DNA from: a phage
DNA length: 64,000 bases
Reading direction: 5' to 3' (one strand)
NCBI GenBank assembly: GCA_019897865.1
Contig: GCA_019897865.1_4532.1
Positions 44,068-52,085 of the stretch are shown one piece after another; position 1 is the stretch's first letter; every line of letters begins with the position of its first letter. A program made the position numbers and the translations under genes. The notes under the pieces were generated by a model. The model was not told the origin of the DNA. It saw nothing but the letters and a program-made list of their open reading frames with translations, and did no database searches.

Positions 44068-44096
44068 AGTCTACAGGATATTTGTTGTTTTGTCAA
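44068..44096 (-). promoter_or_regulatory. Promoter (CTATTGACAA family) upstream of head genes
   Basis: - strand CTATTGACAA with TTGACA at 44096..44091, 17-bp spacer, TAGACT. Confidence 0.45.
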
Positions 44097-44124
44097 TAGA
44101 AAAATTAAAAAATATTAAATATTT

Positions 44125-48221: not shown

Positions 48222-48504
48222 TGATCGTTTGTTTCTTCTTCTCTAAATCTGCTTTTAATTGTGCATTGTTTTTAGACAAGTTGTTTATTTGGGTATTTAA
48301 TAATGCTCTTTCTTCATCTGCTCTTTTTTGAAGAACATCAAAATCCTGTTTTGCTTTTGCTTGGGCTGCTTGATATAATTGCGTTTGATAGGCAACACCA
48401 TCTTTGTAGCCAGACTCATGTATCTTGTTATAAGCAAACATTCCGACAAGAATAAGAACAACAATTAAAACAAAACCTAATACAGTTTTAGTCTTTAGAT
48501 TCAT
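48112..48504 (-). CDS. Inner-membrane spanin (Rz-like)
   Basis: 130 aa; N-terminal TM helix (VLGFVLIVVLILVGMFAY) then coiled-coil periplasmic domain; overlaps Rz1-like gene by about 110 nt. Confidence 0.6.
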   Translation of the reverse strand: MNLKTKTVLGFVLIVVLILVGMFAYNKIHESGYKDGVAYQTQLYQAAQAKAKQDFDVLQKRADEERALLNTQINNLSKNNAQLKADLEKKKQTINEDTTNYAKTNSGSMSCFAPNDDGLFIINKSFPSSY

Positions 48505-48625
48505 TATCTTCTACTTCCTCGTAAAATTTTATTTTAGGAAGAGAAGGGGCATTATTAACTATCTTCTTCACTTCCATCGGTTGAGCCTCCGCTAGGATCT
48601 CTTCCCACGTCTTCTCTGTCATCAT
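48488..48625 (-). CDS. Small hypothetical protein (45 aa)
   Basis: ATG at 48625 with GGAGG 9 nt upstream; stop overlaps i-spanin start. Alternative overlapping 56-aa frame exists (48555..48725). Confidence 0.3.
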   Translation of the reverse strand: MMTEKTWEEILAEAQPMEVKKIVNNAPSLPKIKFYEEVEDNESKD

Positions 48626-48783
48626 AAAGTTCTTCCTCCAAGTTCCAAGCCCGTGTGTAATCATTCTTTTTATCTTTATGATAAGAAGAACGGTTAAAAT
48701 CATTTTTAACTACAAAATTGCGCATATTTTATCCTCCTCATATCTGATCTTATCACAAAAGTATATACAATTGCAAGTATTAA

Positions 48784-48817
48784 AAATAAAAAAGCCCCTA
48801 ACCTTTCGGAGAGGGGT
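48784..48817 (-). terminator. Rho-independent terminator
   Basis: On the - strand: CCCCTCTCC-GAAA-GGTTAGGGG hairpin followed by CTTTTTTATTTTT. Confidence 0.6.
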
Positions 48818-48865
48818 GTTAAAAATAACAAGGAGGAGGGGCAAAGCCCCAAGAGAGGAGAGGGA

Positions 48866-49162
48866 TTAGATTACGATCTTTTTAGGAACGTCATCTGTAT
48901 TCTGCACGGCAGGGGTTTCTTCTTCCATAGCTTCATAATGTTCTTCTAACCATTCTTCTACTTGCTCTTTAATAGCTTTAGCTGCTTGGAAGCGGAGAGG
49001 TTTTGCTGCATCCTTATCATTAACAAGTTCAACAATATACCGCATAGCTTCTAAATAATGCTCTGCAAATAATTCTTTTACACTTGCTTGCGCCGCATCC
49101 ATTGCGTAAATCTGTTGCATTTCGGCTGTTGGTCTTCCACGACCACGTTTTAGTTTAGGCAT
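48866..49162 (-). CDS. Small DNA-binding-like protein with AT-hook-like motif (monocistronic unit)
   Basis: 98 aa; N-terminal KRGRGRP motif; own promoter (TTGACT-17-TAAGAT at 49212..49184), strong AGGAGG RBS, own terminator. Confidence 0.45.
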   Translation of the reverse strand: MPKLKRGRGRPTAEMQQIYAMDAAQASVKELFAEHYLEAMRYIVELVNDKDAAKPLRFQAAKAIKEQVEEWLEEHYEAMEEETPAVQNTDDVPKKIVI

Positions 49163-49234
49163 AATAAAATCCTCCTAAACTTTATCTTAACATATAAAAA
49201 ATAATAAGTCAAGTTTTATTCAATAGATAGCAAA

Positions 49235-49260
49235 AAGCCTCCAATAAGGAGGCCAATAAA
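49235..49260 (-). terminator. Rho-independent terminator at the end of the tRNA array
   Basis: GCCTCC-TTATT-GGAGGC hairpin followed on the - strand by TTTTTGC. Confidence 0.55.
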
Positions 49261-49369
49261 TACTGTTAATTTGAAATGCTTTATTATGATTGTGCGTTAA
49301 GGAGTCGCACCCCTCCATCTTAGAAGGAACCAGGCAAGGTCTTCAAAGATACCACTGGCAAGCGATATT

Positions 49370-49448
49370 TGGAGGCGGGAATTGGATTTGAACCAATGAT
49401 CTCCAGCATATGAAACTGGCGAGGACGACCAAACTCCTCTATCCCGCT
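49370..49448 (-). tRNA. tRNA-Met (anticodon CAT); initiator/elongator/Ile-lysidine not resolved
   Basis: Hand-folded cloverleaf: T-arm ATTGG-TTCAAAT-CCAAT, anticodon loop TTCATAT, encoded CCA; A1-C72 mismatch at acceptor top. Confidence 0.6.
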
Positions 49449-49454
49449 ATTATG

Positions 49455-49526
49455 TATCCCGTGCTGGATTCGAACCAGCGTCACAAGAAATTGTGGATCT
49501 CTTATCCTGTAAGTCTAACGGGAAAC
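49455..49526 (-). ncRNA. tRNA-like element (canonical T-arm and acceptor, no canonical anticodon arm)
   Basis: T-arm GCTGG-TTCGAAT-CCAGC and near-complementary acceptor strands, but the central region forms CACAA-TTTC-TTGTG instead of a 5-bp/7-nt anticodon arm. Confidence 0.3.
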
Positions 49527-49600
49527 TGGTTGTTTCGACAAGAATCGAACTTGTGTCTCACGATTATCAGTCGTGGGTTCTACCATTGAACTACGAAACA
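49527..49600 (-). tRNA. tRNA-Ile (anticodon GAT)
   Basis: Perfect cloverleaf: acceptor TGTTTCG/CGAAACA, D GTTC/GAAC, anticodon stem CACGA/TCGTG with loop CTGATAA, T-arm ACAAG-TTCGATT-CTTGT, encoded CCA. Confidence 0.75.
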
Positions 49601-49606
49601 TTTAAT

Positions 49607-49683
49607 TGGTCGGAATTGCAGGATTCGAACCTGCGACCCTACGCTCCCAAAGCGTATGCTCTACCAAACTGAGCTAAATTCCG
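49607..49683 (-). tRNA. tRNA-Pro (anticodon TGG)
   Basis: Acceptor CGGAATT/AATTCCG, D GCTC/GAGC, anticodon stem TACGC/GCGTA with loop TTTGGGA, T-arm GCAGG-TTCGAAT-CCTGC, CCA. Confidence 0.75.
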
Positions 49684-49688
49684 TTATA

Positions 49689-49764
49689 TGGCTGGTCTGT
49701 CTGGATTTGAACCAAACCTACGACAGTCAAAGTGTCGTGTGCTACCGGACTACACTACAAACCA
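49689..49764 (-). tRNA. tRNA-Gln (anticodon TTG)
   Basis: Acceptor TGGTTTG/CAGACCA (U1-A72, G73), anticodon stem CGACA/TGTCG with loop CTTTGAC, T-arm TTTGG-TTCAAAT-CCAGA, CCA. Confidence 0.7.
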
Positions 49765-49862
49765 ATAAATCATTTAATGAAGGGCAACCAGAAGAGGTGT
49801 GAGAGAAGGAGAAAACCATGAGTAAAAGAGAAAGTTTTCTGGCAACCCTTTATTAAATAATT

Positions 49863-49936
49863 TGGAGCGTTCTACGAGGATCGAACTCGTGCCGCCGACT
49901 TGGAAGGACGGAATGCTACCGCTACACCAAGAACGC
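49863..49936 (-). tRNA. tRNA-Gly (anticodon TCC)
   Basis: Acceptor GCGTTCT/AGAACGC, anticodon loop CTTCCAA, T-arm ACGAG-TTCGATC-CTCGT, discriminator U, CCA; one mismatch in anticodon stem. Confidence 0.65.
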
Positions 49937-49947
49937 CCTACATCTTT

Positions 49948-49977
49948 ACTATACTACATTTTACTATTGATTGTCAA
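49948..49977 (-). promoter_or_regulatory. Promoter (CTATTGACAA family) for downstream tRNA block
   Basis: - strand CTATTGACAA with TTGACA at 49977..49972, about 18-bp spacer, TATAGT; ends about 12 nt before tRNA-Gly. Confidence 0.5.
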
Positions 49978-50250
49978 TAGTTTTATTGAGTGGGACAGTG
50001 ACGAGTATCCCATTGGGTGACTAGCCCTACGTTCGGTAAGCTAACTTAAAATAATACAAAACCAAAGTCAAATATTATTCTTCGTTGCTGTCGATGGGAG
50101 AGCCGCTTCTTCTTTTGCCCCATCCAACCCTACTCCGGTCAAGTTTCAGGTAACTCTTTTTGTGATCAACACAATACTAAGAACACTGTCTTTCGAACAG
50201 ACCTTGTGCACAGGATACGACGATCAATCACAGTGCCCTTAATGTTGTGT

Positions 50251-50325
50251 TGGTGCTCCCACTCTGAATCGAACAGAGATCCACGGATTACAAAACCGTT
50301 GTAATAGCCATTATACTATAGGAGC
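50251..50325 (-). tRNA. tRNA-Thr (anticodon TGT)
   Basis: Acceptor GCTCCTA/TGGGAGC, anticodon loop TTTGTAA, T-arm CTCTG-TTCGATT-CAGAG, A73, CCA; loop-closing pair mismatched. Confidence 0.6.
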
Positions 50326-50331
50326 AAAGCT

Positions 50332-50408
50332 GGGACTCGGCAGGATTCGATACCTGCAATTCCAGAAGCCTCTTGGCGACTGGGGGTTTACCTTAACTCT
50401 ACAAGTCC
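50332..50408 (-). ncRNA. tRNA-like element with extended central hairpin in place of the anticodon arm
   Basis: Good acceptor (GGACTTG/CGAGTCC) and T-arm-like GCAGG...CCTGC (8-nt loop), but middle forms CCAGTCGCC-AAGA-GGCTTCTGG; no CCA. Confidence 0.3.
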
Positions 50409-50415
50409 ATAATTC

Positions 50416-50501
50416 TGGCGATGAGTATAGGATTTGAACCTATATCGTTCTTTCGAACACGGATTAACAGTCCGCCGCTTAAACCATTCAGCCAACTCAT
50501 C
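50416..50501 (-). tRNA. Class II (long variable arm) tRNA with anticodon GTT (Asn codons)
   Basis: 86 nt: acceptor GATGAGT/ACTCATC, 3-bp D stem, anticodon stem GCGGA/TCCGT with loop CTGTTAA, variable arm GTTC-GAAA-GAAC, T-arm ATAGG-TTCAAAT-CCTAT, G73, CCA. Confidence 0.55.
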
Positions 50502-50507
50502 TTAATT

Positions 50508-50595
50508 TGGTGGTGAGTGATGGAGTCGAACCACCCGAATCGCAATGATAACAGATTTACAGTCTGCCCCGCTACCCCTACGGAATTAACTCACC
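50508..50595 (-). tRNA. tRNA-Tyr (anticodon GTA), class II
   Basis: 88 nt: acceptor GGTGAGT/ACTCACC, anticodon stem GCAGA/TCTGT with loop CTGTAAA, long variable region, T-arm GGTGG-TTCGACT-CCATC, A73, CCA. Confidence 0.65.
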
Positions 50596-50725
50596 TAAAT
50601 ACTAATATTTAAATTCTTTTTAAAATAGCCAGTGTTCACACCACTAACTATGATTTATCGGTAAGATGGTGGGGGCCATCTGCCGAAAGTTTACTCTATT
50701 AAAGTAAGCCATATTAAAAAGAACT

Positions 50726-50811
50726 TGGCGGTAGATGTAGGACTCGAACCTACACGCCGTTTCCGACTACAGTTTAGCAAACTGTCGTGGCTACCATTTC
50801 ACCAATCTACC
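50726..50811 (-). tRNA. tRNA-Ser (anticodon GCT), class II
   Basis: 86 nt: acceptor GGTAGAT/ATCTACC, anticodon stem ACAGT/ACTGT with loop TTGCTAA, variable arm GTCG-GAAA-CGGC, T-arm GTAGG-TTCGAGT-CCTAC, G73, CCA. Confidence 0.7.
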
Positions 50812-50816
50812 TAATC

Positions 50817-50907
50817 TGGCGGAAGGAGGGAGAGTCGAACTCCCAAGGCTCTTTCAAGCTCGGCGGTTTTCAAGACCGTTTTCGTCGCCACGTCGATTTG
50901 CCCTTCC
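50817..50907 (-). tRNA. tRNA-Ser (anticodon TGA), class II
   Basis: About 91 nt: acceptor GGAAGGG/TCCTTCC, anticodon loop CTTGAAA, variable arm GCTT-GAAA-GAGC, T-arm GGGAG-TTCGACT-CTCCC, G73, CCA. Confidence 0.65.
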
Positions 50908-50911
50908 ATAC

Positions 50912-50945
50912 TTATAATCTAACATAAAATAATGTTTGTTGTCAA
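50912..50945 (-). promoter_or_regulatory. Promoter (CTATTGACAA family) for the tRNA-Ser block
   Basis: - strand CTATTGACAA (TTGACA 50945..50940), 18-bp spacer ...AAACATTATTTTATGT, TAGATT, then tRNA-Ser about 9 nt downstream. Confidence 0.5.
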
Positions 50946-51141
50946 TAGTTTTTTAAAACATTTTACCATGAATGGTGACTCCACCAACCCCCGTTCTCCA
51001 CGAACGGTGCTCTTCGAGCATTTATGTCTTCTAATATAACCGTGGCCTTTGTTTATAATGTCTGACATATTTGCCTCATTCTCTGCCACCATGATCAGTA
51101 GTGGGTTCAAATCACTTGAGCTAATTCATGTTAAAATGTTC

Positions 51142-51216
51142 TGGTGTCTTTACAAGGAATCGAACCTTGACTAAGAGTTTAGAAGACTCCTGTGCTATCC
51201 ATTACACCATAAAGAC
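51142..51216 (-). tRNA. tRNA-Arg (anticodon TCT)
   Basis: Acceptor GTCTTTA/TAAAGAC, D GTGT/GCAC, anticodon stem GGAGT/ACTCT with loop CTTCTAA, T-arm CAAGG-TTCGATT-CCTTG, CCA. Confidence 0.7.
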
Positions 51217-51218
51217 TT

Positions 51219-51293
51219 TGGTGGCCCTGGCTGGTTTCGATCCAGCTACCTATCGGTTATGAGCCGACAGCTCTCCCATTGAGCTACAGGGCC
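51219..51293 (-). tRNA. tRNA-Met (anticodon CAT), elongator-type; unusual T-loop ATCGAAA
   Basis: Acceptor GGCCCTG/CAGGGCC, D GCTC/GAGC, anticodon stem GTCGG/CCGAT with loop CTCATAA, T-arm GCTGG-ATCGAAA-CCAGC, A73, CCA. Confidence 0.65.
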
Positions 51294-51497
51294 ATAAATG
51301 TGGTAACAGAGACGCTGACGATTGTAGAGAACCGCTACATTCTCTAAGACCAAGCCCAACTTTCAGCGTAAAAGTTCTTGAGCCGAGACTATTCCTTTTC
51401 CTCTTTGGTAGCTAACCTCTGAAGAAGTAGTCTCTAACACTACCGCAGTGCAAGCCCCTCTTAACAAAAGTCAACGACCCTGTTACCACACTTGATG

Positions 51498-51532
51498 AAC
51501 GTATCCTAACATATGAAGGATACGTTTGTCAA
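51498..51532 (-). repeat. 29-bp near-perfect palindrome abutting a third CTATTGACAA motif
   Basis: AACGTATCCT-aaCATATGa-AGGATACGTT (10-bp arms, 51498-51526) directly next to tgtcaa (51527-51532); about 200 nt upstream of tRNA-Met. Confidence 0.5.
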
Positions 51533-51539
51533 TAGTTAT

Positions 51540-51788
51540 TTAAGCATATTCTGCTACTTCTTCACTATCTTTCTTTTCCAGAAGAGCAACAACCAAAGCT
51601 TCTGCGTTAAAAGTGTTAATTTCAAGATCCATCTCTCGCATCAGAGCCAAGAAATCAATAACTTTAACATCTTTAGTTATTACAATAGAAGTTGTACCAT
51701 TGTTTTCAGATGTGTATTTTTCTGGATGGAAAAGAAAAACTGCATTGCCGTTACCATCTTCAAACACGTGTTTTTCTAATAGAGACAT
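51540..51788 (-). CDS. Hypothetical protein (82 aa)
   Basis: ATG at 51788 preceded by AGGAGG (5-nt spacer); the track ORF 51540..51854 is probably an N-terminal over-extension. Confidence 0.5.
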   Translation of the reverse strand: MSLLEKHVFEDGNGNAVFLFHPEKYTSENNGTTSIVITKDVKVIDFLALMREMDLEINTFNAEALVVALLEKKDSEEVAEYA

Positions 51789-51796
51789 TGTTCCTC

Positions 51797-52048
51797 CTAA
51801 TCTGTTAGTTGTTCGTCCTCTACCAAGTTTGACACGAGAACGTCTGTTATACATTGATGCTGATAAACCCTTTCGGGACTATCATCAAAAGCCAAACCTG
51901 TGCAAATAGAACAGAGGTCTGATTCCTTGATGACTCCATTTTTATCACGTCTGGAGTGGTTTGTCAAATGCCTATTACAAGCACGGCACCTAAAATAAAA
52001 GCTATTTTGCATATATCCTTCGAACCCCAAATGGGGAGTGATCGGCAT
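51797..52048 (-). CDS. Small zinc-ribbon protein
   Basis: 83 aa with CRAC...CSIC; stop adjacent to RBS of the next gene. Confidence 0.45.
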   Translation of the reverse strand: MPITPHLGFEGYMQNSFYFRCRACNRHLTNHSRRDKNGVIKESDLCSICTGLAFDDSPERVYQHQCITDVLVSNLVEDEQLTD

Positions 52049-52085
52049 CTCCTCACTTCTAGTTTAGCACGAAGGATATCTTAAG

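Follow-up and report, generated by a model that had tools for sequence, protein, structure and literature searches.

What is encoded in the roughly 200 nt that separate a promoter from tRNA-Met at the head of a phage tRNA cluster? The question is raised by a 64,000-nucleotide stretch of phage DNA (NCBI GenBank assembly GCA_019897865.1, contig GCA_019897865.1_4532.1; hereafter the window), in which the 1-kb region around this leader is 99–100% identical by BLAST to phAPEC8, ESCO13 and about 60 other Escherichia coli myoviruses of the genus Phapecoctavirus (Stephanstirmvirinae). All of the genes here are on the minus strand, including a tRNA cluster at ~49370–51293 (ARAGORN, Rfam), and the leader region was therefore read on that strand; the order along the transcript is promoter box, palindrome, leader, tRNA-Met and tRNA-Arg. 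A preliminary description of the locus had proposed that the leader could be a processed or structured small RNA transcribed together with the tRNAs. Our analysis predicts that it is a folded RNA, which we refer to as RNA A, with a covariation-supported core in which one helix (P2) encloses three hairpins and a fourth hairpin is positioned alongside. We also think it moderately probable that RNA A would be the product of a separate gene of about 200 nt, non-coding, specific to Phapecoctavirus and binding a specific partner in trans, and not a passive 5′ untranslated region.

The minus strand of positions 51294–51500 has a predicted minimum free energy of -76.8 kcal/mol, compared with -53.4 ± 4.0 kcal/mol for shuffled sequences (z = -5.8). 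Over the leader, identity to the window falls to about 80% in six database phages (the phiWec179 group and PsgM04F), and a contig from IMG/VR (L066) carries a third leader variant, giving an alignment (A3) of nine distinct sequence variants in three sub-lineages: the window type, the phiWec179 group with PsgM04F, and L066. In the refined structural model, 98.3% of the cells across the nine variants are in standard pairs, and 12–13 pairs (12 in the refined model) are changed on both sides, versus 0–2 in controls in which the 3′ partners were slid by 1–3 alignment columns. Helices P3, P4 and P6 are each present in three different paired versions across the lineages, and in P2 alignment columns 42/156 are G·U, C-G and U-A, and columns 43/155 are G·U, G-C and A-U, in the three lineages. 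A junction hairpin initially placed at columns 30–34/40–44 was replaced by P2 (42–46/152–156), which has three pair types at one position. Seven helix positions are G·U pairs, which would be mismatched both in DNA and on the opposite strand and are expected only in the minus-strand transcript; the covariance model scores 227.5 bits on the RNA strand and 27.6 bits on the reverse strand. The largest open reading frames (ORFs) touching the leader are 25–37 aa, in agreement with the earlier observation of about 200 nt with no ORF of at least 60 aa; the leader is 203 nt and none of its ORFs exceeds 37 aa. The proposal of a structured small RNA is thus borne out as regards structure by the folding energy, by compensatory changes in diverged relatives and by the lack of a coding signal.

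The ends of RNA A are joined round the branched core by a predicted terminal helix of 22 bp (P1 plus P1b, 16 + 6 bp) with one bulged base (Table 1). The apical motif of P4, GAGGUUAGCUACCAAAGA, is invariant in eight of the nine variants, and L066 has a single change in it (CCAACGA). The P6 loop GUAGC (51334–51338) is also invariant and is complementary to GCUAC of the P4 apex (51408–51412), so that a loop-loop contact between P4 and P6 is possible; it is beyond covariation testing, as neither side shows any variation. Between the window and phiWec179, identity is 100% in the 5′ strand of P1 and 91% in its 3′ strand, 75% in the core and 61% in the upstream ORF. The tRNA genes that these two phages share are mostly 95–100% identical, with tRNA-Thr at 83%, and the tRNA-Tyr/tRNA-Asn stretch differs.

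Table 1. Positions in the window of RNA A, its predicted helices and the adjoining promoter elements.
Feature	Position	Strand	Remarks
RNA A, ~203-nt structured non-coding RNA (predicted)	51294–51496	-	predicted start A51496 to the base before tRNA-Met
P1 + P1b, 5′ strand	51471–51493	-	P1 51478–51493; P1b 51471–51476
P1 + P1b, 3′ strand	51296–51318	-	P1 51296–51311; P1b 51313–51318
P2, enclosing P3, P4 and P5	51346–51458	-	51454–51458 pairs with 51346–51350
Hairpin P3	51437–51451	-	two compensatory pairs, three versions in three lineages
Long hairpin P4	51385–51434	-	compensatory changes in lower and middle stems, apex near-constant
Hairpin P5, nearly invariant	51353–51384	-	one compensatory U-A to A-U; 100% of cells paired
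Hairpin P6	51326–51345	-	five stem pairs compensatory, loop constant
tRNA-Met(CAU)	51219–51293	-	ARAGORN; Rfam tRNA 64.5 bits
CTATTGACAA promoter box	51526–51535	-	-35 hexamer TTGACA at 51527–51532
Extended -10, TGnTAGGAT	51503–51511	-	hexamer TAGGAT 51503–51508; TG 51510–51511
Perfect 10-bp inverted repeat, 9-nt spacer	51498–51526	.	arms 51498–51507 and 51517–51526

RNA A is present in all 71 of the Phapecoctavirus records that match the locus, and the same number carry the locus together with a homologue of the upstream ORF (at least 60% identical). The preliminary description had named the lack of leader and palindrome in homologous phages as evidence that would count against it; both are kept in 71 of 71 of these records. 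Outside the genus the picture is different. A blastn search in distant mode with the leader returned Phapecoctavirus sequences only, all with at least 80% identity. In IMG/VR, motif scans yielded a single true contig (L066), the rest being chance matches as judged by BLAST and/or the covariance model, and a scan of JGI metagenomes added two near-identical contigs, for a total of three genuine contigs, all of them Phapecoctavirus-like. Similar motif scans of GTDB genomes gave chance matches only. In Justusliebigvirus outra, from the sister genus and reached by way of the upstream ORF, as was Citrobacter phage Tr1, the covariance model finds no RNA A at the corresponding locus, and the homologous ORF ends 8 nt before tRNA-Met; it likewise finds none at the locus of Citrobacter phage Tr1, in which the gap before tRNA-Met is 92 nt. 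The scan of Rfam with Infernal that had been suggested for the leader matched no family to it: with Rfam 15 (4227 covariance models; cmscan of 48500–53000 on both strands, E ≤ 5) nothing overlaps 51294–51497, and the matches within the scanned interval are to the tRNAs, with weak and probably chance ones elsewhere. We note that records assigned to Campylobacter, Acinetobacter and Klebsiella phages share at least 99% identity with genomes of E. coli Phapecoctavirus at this locus, and that PsgM04F, labelled a Pseudomonas phage, has its match in the E. coli phiWec179 type. These host assignments may reflect contaminants or mislabelling.

The box noted earlier upstream of tRNA-Met, CTATTGACAA, is present on the minus strand and is part of a predicted sigma-70-type promoter. 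A promoter scan gives TTGACA, an 18-nt spacer and TAGGAT with an upstream TG, matching 10 of 12 consensus positions, and the sequence thus has the features of a sigma-70-type promoter with an extended -10. There are four exact copies of CTATTGACAA in the 64-kb window (at 44090, 49971, 50939 and 51526), all on the minus strand, compared with 0.21 expected, and a count of four was reached in none of 100 shuffles. Two of the other copies are within the tRNA cluster (49971–49980 and 50939–50948) and have the identical 18-nt spacing between -35 and -10. In the phiWec179-type relatives the box is kept as TATTGACAA and the -10 reads TGnTAAGAT. Sigma-70-type promoters, many with an extended -10, have been reported in rV5-like phages (PMC3606486). 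The predicted transcription start, A51496, is at the usual 7-nt distance from the -10. The copy at 49971–49980 (minus strand) is itself within a small palindrome, CTATTGA-CAA-TCAATAG, and the further exact copy in the window is at 44090–44099 (minus strand). Three small genes lie upstream of the promoter, the last of which has its stop codon at 51540–51542. An 83-aa ORF two genes upstream of the promoter (51797–52048, minus strand) has two CxxC pairs and the look of a zinc ribbon; it belongs to no known family (phrog_37033, function unknown).

The first P1 pair (51493) lies 3 nt downstream of the predicted start. At its other end P1 stops at 51296, leaving 2 nt to tRNA-Met, whose first base is 51293; tRNA-Met and tRNA-Arg are likewise 2 nt apart. 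Because of these distances, RNA A appears to occupy a tRNA-like slot, the first in the array. The predicted starts at the two other boxes in the cluster are about 2–5 nt before tRNA-Ser(UGA) and tRNA-Gly. The explanation we favor is that host RNA polymerase with sigma-70 would initiate at CTATTGACAA/TGnTAGGAT, about 3 nt before the terminal helix, and that RNase P cleavage at the 5′ end of tRNA-Met, as expected from standard tRNA processing, would free the 3′ end of RNA A. The near-invariant 22-bp terminal helix would then seal both ends, and may protect them from 5′-end-dependent RNase E and from 3′ exonucleases; it is also long enough for a candidate RNase III site, since P1 plus P1b reaches the length of at least ~20 bp, or about two turns, of RNase III substrates. 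The compact fold would bind a specific partner in trans, either a host or a phage protein or RNA, and this is suggested because of the near-invariant loops and the possible P4–P6 contact. A more speculative extension, which we hold with little confidence, is that RNA A is the first of a new class of compact phage RNAs that act in trans on the host, e.g. as a decoy or inhibitor of an RNA-binding defence nuclease, processing enzyme or regulator, with their ends set cheaply through tRNA processing. A search for complementarity to E. coli genomes gave no match, although such a search is insensitive to short pairings.

Several points weigh against the interpretation of RNA A as a separate trans-acting RNA with the fold proposed here. 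There are effectively three lineages of low diversity, and the compensatory changes therefore represent few independent events. Covariation of single columns is not significant alone, and the 92 column pairs that do 'covary' are uninformative. P1, P5 and the loops are invariant, so that the terminal helix and the loop-loop contact are based on thermodynamics and invariance and not on covariation, and three isolates have one P1 mismatch each. The start site, the ends and the stability of RNA A are all predictions. Finally, a purely cis-acting role in processing or insulation would also explain the structure and the position.

In this cis-acting alternative the leader is a processing and insulation module for the tRNA transcript, with P1 as an RNase III entry site and the excised RNA as a functionless by-product; the folded core would merely prevent the leader from interfering with tRNA folding. 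Leader cleavage upstream of the T4 tRNA-Gln offers a parallel. A helix of 16 + 6 bp with one bulge does abut the 5′ end of the tRNA, and other spacers in the cluster are also closed by long helices (50949–51141, z = -4.05; 50596–50725, z = -4.2), which looks like a general principle of spacer design. However, an insulator needs neither an 18-nt near-invariant P4 apex nor an invariant P6 loop nor a near-invariant P5 amid stems that drift, and the homologous tRNA-Met genes of the sister genus and of Tr1, with their gaps of 8 nt and 92 nt, manage without such a leader. Moreover, the two other promoters of the cluster start a few nucleotides before a tRNA. We consider a role exclusively in cis to be the main rival but unlikely, and favor the separate RNA gene.

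The remaining explanations for the leader fare less well. A leader that senses a ligand or signal in the manner of a riboswitch, or a self-processing ribozyme, controlling the downstream tRNAs, would be in keeping with a multi-helix junction located directly after a promoter, with conservation of nucleotides in the junction and loops and with the possible loop-loop contact. However, no Rfam family matches at E ≤ 5, a riboswitch would lack an expression platform (there is neither a terminator nor a sequestered ribosome-binding site downstream), and an invariant 22-bp P1 is too stable for a switch helix; we regard this as very improbable. We give scant credence to an element acting as DNA, for example a mobile element of the miniature inverted-repeat kind, a signal for replication or packaging, or a protein site flanked by the 22-bp repeats. 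The ends are indeed sequence-invariant inverted repeats, and relative to the sister genus, where the upstream ORF runs to within 8 nt of tRNA-Met, the segment looks like an insertion. But it is a single copy in the window, with no further copies elsewhere in the scans, its internal hairpins evolve by compensatory change, and both the G·U pairs, mismatched in DNA and on the opposite strand, and the strand asymmetry of the covariance score (227.5 versus 27.6 bits) speak for RNA. That the leader encodes a small protein, either from a 34-codon ORF at 51363–51467 or from other ORFs of 25–37 codons, is hardly credible. The 34-codon frame is open in all three lineages and is annotated as a coding sequence in the PsgM04F record, but it has a TTG start inside the folded core and no Shine-Dalgarno sequence, and its codon differences are 13 non-synonymous to 1 synonymous between the window and phiWec179 and 11 to 3 between the window and L066. 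This reading was rejected on the substitution pattern.

The palindrome reported to overlap the -10 region is indeed there; it is perfect over 10 bp with a 9-nt spacer and covers both the promoter spacer and the -10. The inner CATATG described within it is also present, but is off-centre and outside the symmetry of the palindrome. An imperfect extension gives 16-nt arms (51492–51507 and 51517–51532; 14 of 16 positions complementary) that run into the -35 hexamer. By itself the palindrome is near chance expectation: perfect inverted repeats of 10 bp or longer with loops of 3–12 nt occur at three loci in the window, compared with about one expected. Two positions are changed symmetrically in both arms in the phiWec179 type relative to the window, while the loop has changed freely; a third change, A to G in one arm, gives a G·U pair in the minus-strand sense, and in both lineages a folding energy of about -18 kcal/mol is predicted for the sense-strand hairpin. 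The whole palindrome is upstream of the promoter's own transcript because the predicted start is at ~51496, and it would therefore form an RNA hairpin only in transcripts that read through from the upstream genes. It does not have the form of an intrinsic terminator, as what follows the stem is CAUCAAGUGUGG, and the palindrome was not called in the terminator scan. We also note that in Citrobacter phage Tr1 the tRNA-Met promoter has a 9-bp hairpin with a UUCG loop between -35 and -10 (L057 4307–4345: TTGACAGCATTCTTCGGGATGCTGTATATT), unrelated in sequence to the window palindrome and at an equivalent position.

The comparison of lineages slightly favors an RNA hairpin rather than an operator, because the palindrome appears to have evolved by changes that preserve pairing in the sense strand. 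Most likely it would be an element separate from the leader RNA, a 3′-terminal hairpin of transcripts that read through from the small upstream genes, where it would mark or stabilize the 3′ end of those messages, the overlap with the promoter being incidental. Less likely, but a serious alternative, is an operator at which a dimeric repressor would shut off this early promoter. Spanning the promoter spacer and the -10 is a classical repressor position, the symmetric changes in both arms could follow altered repressor specificity, and the location upstream of the predicted start means that the palindrome is missing from the promoter's own transcript. However, matches to the half-site with at most one mismatch number seven in the 64 kb, including the two arms, versus 3.2 expected, which is not beyond chance; the sole asymmetric change yields a sense-strand G·U; and the unrelated UUCG-loop hairpin of Tr1 looks like an RNA-level feature. 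Searches of the three upstream small proteins against Pfam and PHROGs recognized neither a function nor a DNA-binding domain or candidate repressor.

Several other segments of the cluster also have structural features, all on the minus strand. The second non-coding stretch pointed out earlier, at 49990–50140, exists within a 270-nt spacer (49981–50250) that as a whole is not unusually structured (z = -1.2); a long and nearly perfect hairpin (50170–50250) is located at the start of this spacer, directly after tRNA-Thr, and the remainder of the spacer is unremarkable in structure. The spacer between tRNA-Ser(GCU) and tRNA-Tyr (50596–50725) is predicted to form a four-way junction with an 11-bp closing helix (z = -4.2), with three compensatory pairs relative to the phiWec179 type. 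A copy that is 92% identical is found between tRNA-Ser and tRNA-Lys in Justusliebigvirus outra (L056 5194–5298), and in Citrobacter phage Tr1 part of it is matched ahead of the tRNA-Met promoter (L057 4251–4304). This is probably a second RNA gene, conserved more widely than RNA A. The spacer after tRNA-Arg (50949–51141) has a closing rod of ~30 bp and a variable centre (z = -4.05); with two compensatory pairs the evidence is weaker, and small ORFs are annotated here in some records. A 90-nt spacer at 50326–50415 is 97.8% identical between lineages that are otherwise ~80% identical; it includes an acceptor-like stem of 7 bp as well as a T-arm whose loop is 8 nt long. Only at the ps80 setting does ARAGORN report a tRNA-Leu(CAA) here (50332–50408), and the segment is a degenerate or unusual tRNA. 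The genes for tRNA-Ser(UGA) and tRNA-Tyr(GUA) (50817–50907 and 50508–50595) are missed by default ARAGORN and recovered at ps90, and the former resembles tRNA-Sec in Rfam (37.4 bits). Immediately past the last tRNA, 49229–49283 gives a weak RyhB-like match in Rfam (27.5 bits against a gathering threshold of 55, E = 0.045); the segment holds a clean intrinsic terminator (49236–49254) and is probably the terminator of the tRNA operon only.

The anatomy of RNA A is unusually clear, with a predicted promoter flush at one end and a predicted RNase P site at the other. Phapecoctavirus is common in phage-therapy collections, and with RNA A in every record matching the locus it should be easy to delete, mutate and probe. 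A role in trans would make RNA A a new phage tool for use against the host, and a role in cis would show how phages organise the maturation of a polycistronic tRNA transcript. There is also a correction to be made to annotations, as several database records call hypothetical proteins across RNA A.

That phage tRNA clusters include extra stable RNAs has been known for 50 years, and two of these RNAs, RNAC and RNAD of phage T4, appear to be the closest analogues of RNA A. They are small non-coding RNAs inside a phage tRNA cluster and are transcribed with the tRNAs, and RNA A likewise is encoded within the cluster on the tRNA strand. Unlike them, it is at the 5′ head of the cluster, flush with a promoter, is closed by a 22-bp terminal helix and lacks any tRNA-like feature, whereas RNAC and RNAD are at the 3′ end, after tRNA-Arg, the former with a tRNA-like T-arm at its end. 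The covariance model of RNA A has no match in the T4 tRNA-cluster locus (L058), and the folds differ from those of RNAC and RNAD. A search of RNA A for tRNA-like or tmRNA-like structures with ARAGORN (default, ps90 and ps80) found nothing, although ps80 recovers the degenerate tRNAs of the cluster. If the class of trans-acting RNAs proposed above is real, a similar logic might explain the T4 stable RNAs and the other structured spacers of this cluster. The biological role of RNAC and RNAD (the species 1 and species 2 stable RNAs) is still unknown (PMC3014915; PMC9697503). [quoted passage not shown] The 3′ETS is short, pairs linearly with Hfq-dependent small RNAs and ends in a terminator; RNA A differs in being a 5′ piece that is almost fully base-paired, without a terminator.

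In its ends, the 22-bp one-bulge helix of RNA A also resembles the stems cut by RNase III, although cleavage here is predicted only. Such stems, with helices of at least ~20 bp, flank the 16S and 23S rRNAs and occur in T7 early transcripts; they flank rRNAs or mRNAs, whereas the helix of RNA A flanks a folded core of 150 nt. GOLLD and ROOL are large phage RNAs with complex folds and function unknown that are often found near tRNA genes, but they are 3–4 times larger than RNA A and their Rfam models gave no match to the leader at E ≤ 5. The 6S RNA and Y RNA (YrlA) are similar to it in size (~100–200 nt) and in having 5′ and 3′ ends paired in a long closing stem. However, 6S RNA is a rod with a central bubble, in contrast to the covariation-supported branches P3–P6 of RNA A, which has no 6S match in Rfam; for YrlA, the only weak Rfam match in the region is on the tRNAs at 49543–49662 and not on RNA A. 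RNA A adds a covariation-supported family, absent from Rfam and unrelated to RNAC and RNAD of T4. As a predicted RNA it is a narrowly distributed family whose general kind is that of the non-tRNA stable RNAs of phage tRNA clusters.

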